Source: Octopus sinensis (taxonomy: Eukaryota). Taken from it: DNA of 64,000 bases. Positions 16,520 to 45,554 of the stretch are shown one piece after another. The position numbers were made by a program, and so were the translations under genes. Positions within the stretch are counted from its first letter, which is position 1. Every line of letters begins with the position of its first letter. The DNA is taken from contig NC_043009.1 of assembly GCF_006345805.1 (NCBI RefSeq), positions 62,310,001 to 62,374,000 on the forward strand. The letters run 5' to 3'. Under the pieces are notes generated by a model that was given only the letters and a program-made list of their open reading frames with translations, ran no database searches and had not been told where the DNA came from.

Positions 16520-17143
16520 TATTGCCCACAAGGGGCTACACAAAGAGGGGACAAACAAGGACAGACAAACAGATTAAGTCGATTACATCGACCCCAGTGC
16601 GTAAATGGTACTTATTTAATCGACCTCGAAAGGATGAAAAGCAAAGTCAGCCTCGGCGGAATTTTAACTCAGTACGTAACGGCAGACGAAATACTGCCAA
16701 GCATTTCGCCGGCGTGCTAACGCTTCTTATTTTTTTATTGCCCACAAGGGGCTACACAAAGAGGGGACAAACAAGGACAGACAAACGGATTAAGTCGATT
16801 ATATCGACCTCAGTGCGTAACTGGTACTTATTTAATCGACCCCGAAAGGATGAAAGGCAAAGTCGACCTCGGCGAAATTTGAACTCAGAATGTGGCGGCA
16901 GACGAAATACCTATTTCTTTACTACCCACAAGGGGCTATACACAGAGGGGTCAAACAAGGACAGACAAACGGATTAAATCGATTATATCGATCCCAGTGC
17001 GTAACTGGTACTTATTTAATCGACCTCAAAAGGATGAAAGGCAAAGTCGACCTCGGCGAAATTTGAACTCAGAATGTAGCGGCAGACGAAATACGGCTAC
17101 GCATTTCGCCCGGCGTGCTAACGATTCTGCCAGCTCACCGCCT
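16520..17143 (-). mobile_element. SINE family B head-to-tail trimer
   Basis: Three tail-1 units; junctions at ~16725 and 16904-16917. Confidence 0.92.
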
Positions 17144-18022
17144 TAGATTCAGGCTTCTTATTCGTTCTAACAGAAGAATTCCCAGCCCAAAAGTCTAGCC
17201 CAAAAAAGGTAAACATACACAGCATAAAATGGACAGCTAAGACATATATGCATAGTTATACAAAGATTGTAATAATAAATAACAAGAAAACACCTTGCGC
17301 AGGAGTCATAGAAGTACTAGTTAGGCTACGGATGGACGGTCTGCTTAATCAATGCTGACATTGGAGTCAACTACAACAACAAATTAAGCAGTGAAAACAC
17401 GTCCGTCTTGTTTATTCCCTACACACAAATCATCCTTTTCGCTTACTTCTGTAACTATATATTTCTGTCTGTCTGTCTGTCTGTCTGTCTGCCTCTCCTT
17501 TTCTCTTTTCCTCTACACACATGCATACACGCACGCACGCACACACGAATCCACGCACATACGCCCGTACATACACAACACACACGCACACATTAATGTA
17601 TATGTATATTATGTATTCACACCTAGCTACCTGGCTTTATAAATCTTTATAAATCTTTATAGCAACTTAACTACCTACCCACCTACCCACCCATCTAATC
17701 TATCTATGTATCTATCTATCTATCTATCTATCTATCTATCTATCTATCTATCTATCTATCTATCTATCTATCTATCTATCTATCTATCTTTCATCCGTTC
17801 ACTAAGCAACGTCAACCGGCGGCGCAATTTAAGGGAGACAACTCTATCAGTAACTATTTTATAATTATCTCCCTTACCTTACTTTTAGTTTGAGACAAAC
17901 ATTTCGCTGGAGGTTACATCACTGAAGGAATATATACGATGTGTTTGCTGCTGCTGCTGCTTTTACTCTTTTACGTGATGACGGCGGCGGCGGCGGCGAT
18001 GACGACGACGACGAGGAAGAGG

Positions 18023-19410
18023 ATTTCTATTCTTTTATTGGTTACAAGGGCCCACGATACTGAGAACAATATAGAAGGATGAGATGCATCTCACAGAAAG
18101 TGGTATTTACATCGATCTAAAGGAAACCAACCCCATTAAAGATATGACAAAAAAATATATATATATAAGTAGAATTCACAAAATTTCAACAGGAAAAATT
18201 CCCCAATAACTGACCATTCAGTCCACACAGAATAATTCGCAGGTAGGACCTCACACCGAAAGATCCGGATTACTCAACCATCTCCAAGGCGTCGAAATTG
18301 CCATCCCGCGGTTTATTTCTTCTTACTTACAAAAACCTTGTCAGTATTTGCTCAGACTGACTCGTCAGTCTTGCCACACTCACTCACATTTCTTTAAATC
18401 ACTTGAAAGCAACACTGTCGACCATCACCTTCTTCGTAAAATGGTACTTGAAGATATTGATGAGAATTTGGCCAGGTAGAAGACGGCGAGCTGGCAGAAT
18501 CGTTAACGCGTCGGGCGAAACGCGTAGCCGTATTTTGTCTGCCGTTACGTTCTGAGTTCAAATTCCGCCGAGGTCGACTTTGCCTTTCATCTTTTCGGGG
18601 TCGATAAATTAAGTACCTGTTACGCACTGGGGTCAATATAATCGACTTAATCCGTTTGTCTGTCTTTGTTTGTCCCCTCTGTGTTTAGTCCCTTGTAGGT
18701 AGTAAAGAAATAGGTATTTCGTCTGCCGTTACGTTCTGAATTCAAATTCCGCCGAGGTCGACTTTGTCTTTCATCCTTTTCGGGGTCGATTAAATAAGTA
18801 CCAGTTACGCACTGGGGTCGGTGTAATCGACTTAATCCGTTTGTCTGTCCTTGTTTGTCCCTTCTATGTTTAGCCCCCTGTGGGCAATAAAGAAGTAAAT
18901 TTGGCCAGGTAGGAGAAAGCTTGACTGCAAACGTTTCAGACGAGTCCATTCTTCTTTGTCAAAGAAGCAGACGCGTCGATCTTTACTATGAACTCGGTGG
19001 ACGACTAGATTCGTCCTATGTGTGGAAGCAACTCTTCGACGCAAGCCTACAAATCGCTAAAGCACACACACACCGAAGAAAGACATGTTGGACGATTCTG
19101 TCCGACGGCAAGCATTTCGGAGAGGTTCGGCTTTTGGCGGTTCCATGCCTGTTGAGCTTTTCTCCGGGCCTCTAGGTCCAGTGCTAAAAATCTCCACTGG
19201 CCAACATGGATTTGCCTTTTTAAGTGTCTAGCTTCAAGGCCACCGACTTGTTCTGGCTCCTGTGTACTCCTGAACAGTATAGTTTTTATATTTGAAATAC
19301 TAGACACCATGATAGGGACCTCATACTCGCAACTTCCCGTTGAAGAAATGGCGGAGAGCCATTCTCGTAACAAGCGCTTCGTTTCCAATGCCTCCTCCAT
19401 GTACCTCTTC
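18023..19410 (-). mobile_element. L1/Tx1-clade LINE 3' remnant (ORF2 C-terminal Cys/His region and 3' UTR)
   Basis: RHGTAKSRTSPKCLPSDRIVQHVFLRC / FSDL*ACVEELLPHIGRI / WTRLKRLQSSFLLPGQI, continuing past the SINE as LINIFKYHFTKKV...FKEM*VSVAR; ends CCCTTGTAACCAATAAAAGAAT. Confidence 0.7.
18480..18897 (+). mobile_element. SINE family B dimer with 15-bp TSD
   Basis: AATTTGGCCAGGTAG at 18465-18479 and 18898-18912; junction at 18707-18720. Confidence 0.95.
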
Positions 19411-19719
19411 TAAGAGACTAACTAGTTTCTGATTTTTCTTTTTAGTGAAACCCCACCACCTGTTGTTGATGATGGCCTTCATCAGTTACTGCCTGATACG
19501 AATAATAATAATAATAATGCTGACTGTAGACAACTGACACTTTCCATCATACCCTGCAAAATCAGTTGAAAGTTCTCATCAAATATTGAAAATAATAGTA
19601 GTAGTAGTAGTAGTAGTAGTAGTAGTAGTAGTAGTAGTAGTAGTAGTAGTAGTAGTAGTAGTAGTGTGGTGGTGGTGGTGGTGCTGGTGGTAGTAGTAGT
19701 AGTAGTAGTAGTAGTAGTA

Positions 19720-19950
19720 GTACCTCGTTCAGGGACTTTTTCAGTGGGACGGGCTACTCGATCTGAAGAAGATTCTAACAGGGCCCCCACCCGCAAGGTC
19801 ATGCGCTGCTTATCTTGATATGAGATCGCCAGGTCACACACATATGGTTGTGATGCACGTGCCTGTCGGGTATATTGGAGCTTCGTGTATTTGTACCCCA
19901 ATATCACTTTGATGGCTTGTATTGCTCTCTCACTCAATAATAATAATAAC
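19720..19950 (+). mobile_element. 3' part of another retroposon ending CTCTCTCACTC(AAT)n
   Basis: GC-richer block between microsatellites ending in a simple-repeat tail. Confidence 0.4.
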
Positions 19951-44150: not shown

Positions 44151-44194
44151 CCCAGTGCTCTGTTGACGCAAAGTGGTGGTGTGTTGTGTTTAGC

Positions 44195-44630
44195 CAGGAC
44201 CAGATTAGTGCAATATAAATGCCCTAAGCACTTCAAAGATTTTGGTGCCCCCATATATATAATTCAAAATACAAACAATAAGAAACCATAAAATAGATAT
44301 TTTATTTTTCAAAATGAAACAAAAAACTAACAATAAGATAGAAAATAATGTTTATTTCTCTATACTTCCACTTTATTCATATTTGATATGTTTTTTCTCC
44401 TACTTTTTTTTTAATAGCAAAATCTTTGATCAGATTCTCACCGTGACATCATGAACAGTTCGAAATTATATTTCCGATCATATAAACCATTTGGAATATT
44501 ATTTTAGAAAGTTTAAAGAGATTTCTTTTGTCCCGCAAACCATTTACCATTTATTTCTGTGGTGTGTCTCCACCCTTCCTTTGATGTCCTAAGCACATGC
44601 TTATTTTGCTTAATGGTTAATCCAGCTCTG
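44195..44630. mobile_element. hAT MITE with perfect 8-bp TSD
   Basis: TIRs CAGGACCAGATTA / TAATCCAGCTCTG; TGTTTAGC at 44187-44194 and 44631-44638. Confidence 0.92.
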
Positions 44631-44821
44631 TGTTTAGCGTAATGTAATGCCGTGCAGTACGATAGTGCAATATAGTTTAATGTAATGTAACGTTCAATTG
44701 TATTATTTTTGCAACACACTGTTGAGTTTGTGCAATGTAGTATAATGTTGGCGTGATTTAGTACGAGTTATTATAATGTAGTTATTACAGGGATGTGTTA
44801 TGGCATAATGTAAACTAGTTT

Positions 44822-45224
44822 AAGGCGGCGAAGTGGCAGAAACGTTAGCATACCGGGTGAAATGCTTAGCGGTGTTTCGTCTGTTTTTATATTCTGAGTT
44901 CAAGTTCCGCCGAGGTCGATTTTGCCTTTCATCCTTTCGGGGTCGATAAATAAAGTACCAGTTGCGCACTGGGGTCGATATAATCGACTTAATCCGTTTG
45001 TCTGTCCTTGTTTGTCCCATCTGTGTTTAACCCCTTGTGGGTAGTAAAGAAATAGGTATTTCGTCTGTCTTTACATTCTGAGTTCAAATTCCGCCGAGGT
45101 CGACTTTGCCTTTCATCCTTTCGGGGTCGATAAATTAAGCACCAATTTGCGCACTGGGGTCGATCTAATCGACAGACCCCCTCCCCCAAAATTTCGGACT
45201 TTGTGCCTAGAGTAGAAAAAAATA
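44822..45224 (+). mobile_element. SINE family B heterodimer (tail-1 unit plus tail-2 unit) inside one 17-bp TSD
   Basis: ATAATGTAAACTAGTTT at 44805-44821 and 45225-45241; junction 45049-45062. Confidence 0.95.
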
Positions 45225-45554
45225 ATAATGTAAACTAGTTTCGTGTTGTGTTATAGCATAAATGTAATGCAATATTGTACTGTGAAAGTGTAATAGAAAT
45301 CAGTGATGCATTATGTAACGTTATGTAGCATTGTGATGTGTTGACGTAATCTAGTGTAATGATGTGTATTATTAGTGCAATATAAAGTGGTATTAGTATA
45401 ATTTAGTGTTGTGATGTGTTTCCATGGTTTTGTTATTGCTTGTGTGATATAGCATTGCGGGGGTGCTGTGTTGCTGTAATAGACTGAGTGATCTGTTGTC
45501 TTCTTTTTTTTCCTTGTCTTTTTTCAATTTTTTCTGTAGTTTTGTATAAAATAG

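Follow-up and report, generated by a model that had tools for sequence, protein, structure and literature searches.

Multimers of an octopus short interspersed element share one internal junction and may grow by addition of units to resident copies

Introduction

Multimers of short interspersed elements (SINEs) as such are already well known. In octopus, SINEs account for ∼40% of the transposable-element complement and are mainly of the tRNA-Core and tRNA-Deu types (PMC8967140); the tRNA-derived CORE-type SINEs OR1 and OR2 go back to Ohshima and Okada 1994 (as cited in PMC4824008 and PMC4758252). Here we analyse one SINE family in a stretch of 64,000 nucleotides (nt) of Octopus sinensis (assembly GCF_006345805.1, contig NC_043009.1, positions 62,310,001 to 62,374,000, forward strand), called the window below and numbered from its first letter. 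In seven arrays of the window one tail variant of the family is joined to the head of a further copy at the same base. At one array, D, the units differ in age and lineage in a way that shows addition to a resident copy, and for the arrays overall such addition is suggested.

Head-to-tail multimers are common among the mammalian SINEs B2, Dip and Ves and dimeric families such as Alu (11-49% of copies); their units are full-length and joined via insertion into the A-tail or as fixed dimers (PMC8466645, PMC3531059), and the origin of the B2, Dip and Ves multimers is called unknown by the authors (PMC8466645). The TSD1-(SINE)n-TSD1 arrays of bivalves contain 2-3 units within one target site duplication (TSD). 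Their first unit has a full head and later heads are truncated, inner units carry a partial tail and the last unit a whole one, and at most ∼3% of copies are involved (PMC11481361). In the SINE-derived satellite of squamates (sSat), part of a SINE is repeated in tandem and the array closes with a unit longer than the others. One and the same unit is found at many loci, in mostly subtelomeric arrays of up to 1000 homogenised units (PMC10702118). The crocodilian SINEU/Tx1-Mar elements strongly prefer one position in an abundant repeat, a Mariner transposon, and insert there sequentially in tandem, with a TSD between the copies and a known target-specific partner (PMC4494074). R2 and SART1 are autonomous, have site-specific endonucleases and use a multicopy host target; target sequence on their RNA pairs with the nicked target and yields an exact 3' junction (PMC6795142, PMC7265360).

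Data and methods

The sample comprises the seven arrays of the window and four public sequencing runs (of 24) aligned to the monomer at 33882. The runs carry three organism labels: X13 is organism E, X16 is organism F and X15, taken as RNA by guess only, is organism A; to these comes the raw run X22, with just 20 aligned reads out of 12.9 million. The joints reported for the runs are the best-supported ones listed, beside which there are 614 others; some events are uncounted, and contig depth is not copy number.

As a yardstick of age we used rare changes over the shared part of the copies. Alleles seen at least three times were masked, and CpG and non-CpG changes were counted apart. The counts omit the columns past position 88 of the deleted unit of array C and the ends of three truncated copies. 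The tail alleles of D2 and F2 were read directly from the sequences; H1 was unscorable.

A fixed junction behind one tail variant

The family comprises 22 delimited loci, or 9.6% of the window. Its copies have a head (50 nt) and a middle (115 nt) in common, followed by either tail-1 (in variants 1a and 1b) or tail-2. The 17-mer junction J1, AAAGAAATA joined to GGTATTTC, has exact matches at eight places in seven loci, just as the initial annotation had reported; three lie on the + strand, where the matches begin 3 bases to the left of the positions first assigned, and five on the − strand. The measured period of 180-185 bears out units of ∼180 bp. Eight of the 11 tail-1a ends run into J1, and the other three are terminal, each with a different end. 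None of the five tail-1b ends does so: three join head position 17-21 instead (junction J2, at 12026(-), 16728(-) and 30666(+), with a 4-base overlap AGAA and a unit length of 216) and two are terminal. All 8/8 joins of tail-1a to a SINE fall on one of ∼165 shared positions, and the position of J1 is not due to chance. The earlier phrase 'one invariant junction' is overstated, since J2 and further joints exist.

The unit downstream of J1 ends in tail-2 at three of the eight junctions, in tail-1b at two, in tail-1a at two and in a fold-back tail-1 at one. The tail-2 last units described before at 22289, 23385 and 44822 were found again on inspection. With its type varying among the eight junctions, the downstream unit does not follow the fixed left and right monomer composition of an Alu-like dimeric family, and compared with the mammalian multimers it is 50 bases shorter, with a constant point of truncation, and varies in subfamily.

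Whole multimers flanked by a single TSD had been noted at 18480, 29128 and 44822. All three were recovered, and a fourth array-wide TSD, around array A, had been missed (Table 1). No TSD was found around arrays C (22289), D (23385) and F (29939). In a control, 4/300 random flank pairs reached a match of at least 15.

These arrays resemble those of bivalves in their 2-3 units, first full head and single TSD. The inner tails are whole here, with inner units ending where terminal tail-1a copies end, so the inner tail truncation of the bivalve type is absent, and J1 lies behind 8/11 tail-1a ends, against at most ∼3% of copies in bivalve arrays; the excerpts of the bivalve paper mention neither a junction common to several loci nor an age difference (PMC11481361). 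As in sSat, the repeated units are parts of a SINE and the terminal one is longer. Long homogenised arrays are absent: the arrays have 2-3 units each, are scattered and flanked by TSDs, and mix lineages within one array; the inner units D1 and D2 of array D are closer to other loci than to each other. The share of tail-1a ends at J1 exceeds the >20% of copies at one target that marks SINEU-type insertion. The target here is the family itself, and no TSD between successive insertions was found: neither a repeated head nor a spacer separates the units, and one shared base in D is the sole hint.

The junction in other sequencing runs

On the reference monomer J1 is a joint from 34112 back to 33932, with the letters TAG between. 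It is present in all four runs, supported by 1/20 raw reads in X22 and, among the joints listed, by 2 contigs in X13, 9 in X16 and 40 in X15. In X15 it is the best-supported of the joints listed, and the loose ends there agree with it in consensus, both the 261 behind the tail and the 573 before position 51. Because J1 was found in all four runs under three organism labels, it is real and family-wide. In 3/4 runs there is a joint that, like J2, enters the head at position 17 (4, 1 and 3 contigs among the joints listed); in X13 its intervening letters differ from those of J2 in the window. The usual loose end behind the tail is of the 1b type in X13 and X16.

The head type GTAGCC makes up 4% of depth in X13, 2% in X16 and 53% in X15. 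As it is rare in X13 and X16, which carry J1, the junction is older than this head type. Joints in X13 and X16 also leave at the tail-2 branch point (34048-34051) and return to body or head, 28 and 27 contigs returning to 33947. This suggests that tail-2 units lead multimers in those species too; none of that kind was seen in the window.

A literature search found no report of a SINE that, at different loci and in different species, is joined to other members of its family at one constant internal base, with most subscription journals and Repbase reports outside the search. The family may already be described in the SINEBase consensus files or in a further file of the MetaSINE supplement, perhaps as a dimer.

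Age of outer and inner units

The initial annotation held that young units home into older copies and are joined at the 5' side through homology, and that array D is more decayed at its ends than in the middle. The decay in D is clear: the last unit shows 17/116 changes compared to 4/232 in the inner units (p = 5e-6), and the head 4/49. D1 is nearest to A2 and F1 (6 and 4 of 112) and D2 to the monomer at 24674 (5 of 112), while D1 and D2 differ from each other at 8 of 112. This grouping of the inner units with different outside copies points to two arrivals at one place and is hard to explain otherwise.

Pooled over the arrays, rare non-CpG changes number 11/680 in inner units, 26/651 in last units (p = 0.011) and 12/231 in heads (p = 0.006). 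Monomers as a control show no head excess (head 11/231, body 27/647), and the excess in the arrays survives the omission of any one locus (p = 0.002-0.047). The head type tracks the tail type of the last unit in 7/7 arrays (p = 0.029), and the point in the first unit at which old sequence gives way to new ranges between ∼63, in C and D, and ∼150, in G.

Several points weigh against an addition of young units to older copies. The asymmetry is significant per locus in D only, with C, E and F in the same direction; arrays A and B have equal ages and G is reversed (7 vs 3 of 116). Without D the difference between last and inner units falls to p = 0.16, and CpG sites give no head excess (8/112 vs 10/170). 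Masking alleles seen at least three times favours the commonest type, i.e. the inner one, and the two youngest monomers also change more in the head (2/66) than in the body (0/186). The concordance of head and last unit may reflect subfamily age, the GTAGCC head being at most 4% in two other species, and the sample of arrays is small (n = 7). The age signal is thus clear at D and moderate when pooled; it depends largely on D and is not seen at CpG sites of heads.

Equal ages in A and B are what one would expect if J1 was born once in a source locus and the arrays are whole retrocopies of multimeric sources, reshaped by conversion and template switches and without any insertion into a resident copy. 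The single TSD around 4/7 arrays, the tie of J1 to one tail haplotype and the 7-nt 5' extension and first-unit alleles shared by A and F also favour such sources. Most copies have no run of four T in the body, so RNA polymerase III (Pol III) could read through the units; the single T4 of the reference monomer is a private change. Local exchange is visible in array A, where units 2 and 3 share a private tail (1/66 differences). As the whole explanation we nevertheless consider multimeric sources unlikely: D has an old head and an old last unit around two young units of different origin, there are at least four kinds of last unit, the head agrees in type with the last unit in every array, and the masters would themselves need repeated additions of units. 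Multimeric sources probably operate alongside the addition of units.

Array D also bears on the templates. The reverse transcriptase could jump from RNA halves cut in the head loop to the 3' end of a second RNA in one event, or roll round a circular RNA. Jumping would account for mixed tail types; for TTAGCG heads the downstream unit starts at the first base of the 3' arm, and the last six bases of the tail are complementary to the bases just past the junction. End-to-end template jumping is known for the R2 reverse transcriptase. It predicts a head that matches the first unit and a single age, both contradicted by D, and the hairpin at the junction is unstable as RNA. A circular template, also listed in the initial annotation, predicts identical units; D1 and D2 differ at 13/178 sites, last units carry other tails, and the units inside one array stem from different lineages. 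We regard this pair of explanations as improbable.

Probable inheritance of the junction

Addition to a resident copy leaves two sources for the junction itself: it could be brought in by the donor or made at each insertion. On the sequence evidence J1 was likely inherited with the donor. It is exact in 8/8 joins, whereas the three terminal tail-1a ends all differ. A G follows J1 directly in 8/8 cases, although the arrays' own head in A, B and E has C there. The tail allele TCTGTG is found in 8/8 J1 units compared to 1/7 other scorable tail-1 units (p = 0.0014), and across the runs its share of contig depth climbs with the number of J1 contigs among the joints listed (24%, 35% and 64% vs 2, 9 and 40). 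The last units of C and D have two substitutions and a 2-nt deletion in common within 25 bases past J1 (12-25 downstream) and diverge in subfamily alleles further downstream; the deletion occurs in two copies of the window, both after J1, and is not among the run variants listed at 2%. Finally, each tail variant has its own junction, tail-1a leading to J1 and tail-1b to J2.

Some points weigh against inheritance. The G after J1 might just be the final base of the tail. With 0.9 kb between C and D, local conversion may have produced their shared variants. Five subfamily types follow J1 within 20 bases, which implies that the carried-over stretch is usually short or that donors are many. In D, position 62 is an A in both the first and the last unit, reminiscent of a 13-nt duplication, which would fit fresh cutting.

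Fresh cutting would mean that an endonuclease of a long interspersed element (LINE), specific to sequence or structure, cuts the head loop, so that J1 is made anew each time and the 5' end is resolved by homology. The evidence from ages and heads applies here in equal measure, as do the five subfamily types and the shared A just mentioned, and Tx1-mobilised SINEs that target another transposon provide a precedent (PMC4494074). J1 also lies at the 3' edge of the loop of a conserved hairpin, which can fold as DNA too. The hairpin as written in the initial annotation has 0 exact matches in the window, and it is not an anticodon arm: it has a 12-pair stem and a 4-nt loop rather than 5 pairs and 7 nt, although it sits between the A-box-like and B-box-like motifs. 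Its stem is paired in 92% of 214 cells, a value as high as which was reached in 0/500 shuffles, a control that ignores relatedness. The closing pair covaries (U-G in 8, G-C in 5 and U-A in 4 of 18), and these compensatory changes between subfamilies (33915-33942 and the other heads) suggest that selection acts on the RNA fold of the head. The hairpin claimed for the junction itself is indeed a perfect 6-bp inverted repeat, but it is unstable as RNA (z 0.15) and weak as DNA (-1.4 to -1.8 kcal/mol).

What makes loop cutting unlikely is the behaviour of the ends. They differ in 3/3 cases at non-SINE sites and in 0/8 at J1, and as tail-1b goes to J2, the site follows the tail variant and not one nuclease. 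The same tail enters unrelated sites with ordinary TSDs, array C has no match to the duplication, and in the window no LINE is seen inserted at the J1 site and no partner was identified. Of the earlier claim, the homing of young units with the 5' side set by homology is thus clear at D and moderate in the pooled data; cutting specific to the loop seems less likely, and the junction is more probably borne by the donor.

An inherited junction would also result from homing at the level of DNA: both ends of a broken monomer would invade a J1 dimer elsewhere in the genome and use it as the repair template, gaining one unit with no reverse transcription. This would explain why switch points vary, why no new TSD is formed and why ages are reversed in G; C and D are near neighbours. 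We consider it slightly less probable still than the jumping or circular templates: J1 is carried by 7/22 loci of the window, which seems high for passive conversion between ∼10%-diverged 200-bp repeats.

Proposed mechanism

The reading that we prefer, with a probability of roughly 45%, is that a read-through RNA bearing J1 is reverse-transcribed into older family members, guided by homology at either end much as R2 is by its 28S flanks, and that arrays also move whole. All steps are conjectural. J1 would have arisen once or a few times in an ancestor. Pol III would transcribe from the head through the tail and some distance beyond J1, and the endonuclease of a partner LINE would nick a resident copy near position 50-75. 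The freed target end could then pair with the read-through part of the RNA, which would fix the junction without a loop-specific nuclease. The complementary DNA would anneal to the homologous strand of the resident copy at a variable point, with the consequence that the old head is kept, no new TSD arises and one 184-bp unit is gained. Loci with J1 might also retrotranspose whole, neighbouring units might swap tracts by conversion, and J2 would represent a parallel lineage. Homology-resolved L1 chimeras and the replacement of an old Alu by a young one are known. R2Ol inserts faster and more accurately when its RNA carries 4-100 nt of downstream target sequence (PMC6795142), and in SART1 short target-like words on the RNA set the start (PMC7265360). 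Compared with these, the octopus element is non-autonomous, its targets are its own dispersed copies, and the pairing is putative.

More tentatively, the family could be seen as a retro-homing SINE whose RNA carries a piece of its own target and enters hundreds of thousands of older family copies via RNA-DNA pairing. It would have no site-specific nuclease of its own and would include at least two parallel lineages (J1 and J2) across several species. If true, the SINE makes its own family a safe harbour, with the insertion site set by RNA sequence alone. In this way subfamilies would also exchange their heads, bodies and tails, which would explain directly why SINEs evolve as mosaics; the usual explanation is template switching or recombination of an unspecified kind. 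In these genomes, both the dating of repeats and the use of SINE insertions as markers would be biased, as sequence of different ages would be found within a single TSD. If the arrays merely copy multimeric masters, the structure would still be undescribed and very abundant, with an ordinary mechanism.

A further point against the preferred reading is that the partner LINE was not found: Pfam searches with 16 frames of four decayed LINE-like stretches in the window gave nothing above the cut-off. The LINE-like stretch at 18034 has a 3' end that is loosely tail-1-like by pattern match, and no valid protein match.

Three candidate signals were set aside. A HMMER match to a repetitive hypothetical nematode protein was rejected as spurious as a LINE homologue. 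The word TATTT just past J1, a terminator that is 42% efficient in a mammalian assay (PMC8466645), was given little weight as the source of the RNA end, being present in every young head. The G at position 53 common to array G and the monomer at 12403 is likely due to chance.

Family assignment and feature coordinates

The 22 loci of the window and 96,324-225,529 contigs in each of three runs exceed the at least 100 dispersed short copies expected of a SINE, and TSDs of variable length (13-19 nt; 4/7 arrays and 3/5 monomers examined) agree with a tRNA-derived one. Motifs resembling the A box (∼14-25) and the B box (∼76-88) were recognised. ARAGORN predicted 0 genes and Rfam matched neither a tRNA nor any other RNA family. 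No match to the family was found in the two files searched of the MetaSINE supplement. Pattern scans for the junction or the SINE body gave 0 matches among viral or metagenome contigs; in genome contigs their single match, to a bacterium, is due to chance. The family may be kin to OR1/OR2. Compared by description only, OR1/OR2 likewise have ∼230 bp, an A/B-box-like head, a shared middle, exchangeable tails and a very high copy number; fixed-junction multimers are not mentioned for them in the excerpts (PMC4824008, PMC4758252).

Table 1. Family arrays, monomers and flanking duplications in the window, with the LINE-like host of array B.
Feature	Position	Strand	Description
Array A	16512..17153	-	9-nt 5' extension, head + tail-1a unit, J1 16912/16911, tail-1b unit, J2 16728/16727, tail-1b unit starting at head position ∼21
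TSD of array A	16497..16511, partner 17154-17168		15 nt, one mismatch
Array B	18480..18897	+	head GTAGCC + tail-1a unit, J1 18712/18713, tail-1b unit
TSD of array B	18465-18479 and 18898-18912		15 nt, exact
Array C	22289..22602	+	head TTAGCG + internally deleted tail-1a unit, J1 22441/22442, tail-2 last unit with rare 2-nt deletion; no TSD found
Array D	23385..23951	-	old-type head, two young tail-1a units of different lineages, J1 23723/23722 and 23539/23538, decayed old tail-2 last unit with the rare 2-nt deletion of array C; no TSD found
Array E	29128..29540	-	head GTAGCC + tail-1a unit, J1 29310/29309, terminal tail-1a unit ending at J1 point
TSD of array E	29113-29127 and 29541-29555		15 nt
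Array F	29939..30457	-	head + tail-1a unit, J1 30224/30223, tail-1 unit with fold-back end (30039-30066), then a truncated unit behind a third junction (into head position ∼42); no TSD found
Array G	44822..45225	+	first unit tail-2-type to position ∼150, then tail-1a; J1 45054/45055; tail-2 unit
TSD of array G	44805-44821 and 45225-45241		17 nt
J2 dimer H	11965..12245	-	tail-1 unit, J2 12026/12025, truncated second unit
J2 remnant I	30633..30866	+	∼30 nt of tail-1b, J2 30665/30666, old tail-2 unit
Youngest tail-1a monomer (run reference)	33882..34112	+	head hairpin 33915-33942; TSD at 33864 and 34115
Tail-1a monomer	24674..24908	+	19-nt TSD
Tail-2 monomer	21354..21575	-	13-nt TSD
Tail-2 monomer	12403..12612	+	
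Old tail-2 monomer	1035..1248	+	
Decayed LINE-like stretch hosting array B	18034..19420	-	3' end loosely tail-1-like; candidate partner lead only

The 7-nt stretch common to arrays A and F lies just 5' of the head (17145-17153(-) and 30458-30465(-)), together with several shared first-unit alleles; in A it counts as a 5' extension because it is inside the TSD. Ahead of the third junction of array F (30039-30070) the tail-1 stem and its own reverse copy form a perfect inverted repeat of 23 nt, which looks like a fold-back during reverse transcription. Copies of the family repeatedly stand inside or against a second SINE family (33600-34160, 30540-30630, 11800-11965 and 29940). The 3' end of the LINE-like stretch into which array B is inserted, loosely similar to tail-1b, abuts a trinucleotide run.

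The window as a whole is microsatellite-rich animal DNA with a G+C content of 38.7%. It also holds an open frame at 9981-10373(-), a putative fragment of a Tc1/mariner transposase. At 46000-46400 and 3331-3528 there are copies of a repeat with internal tandem units of ∼99 bp, possibly a non-autonomous DNA transposon.

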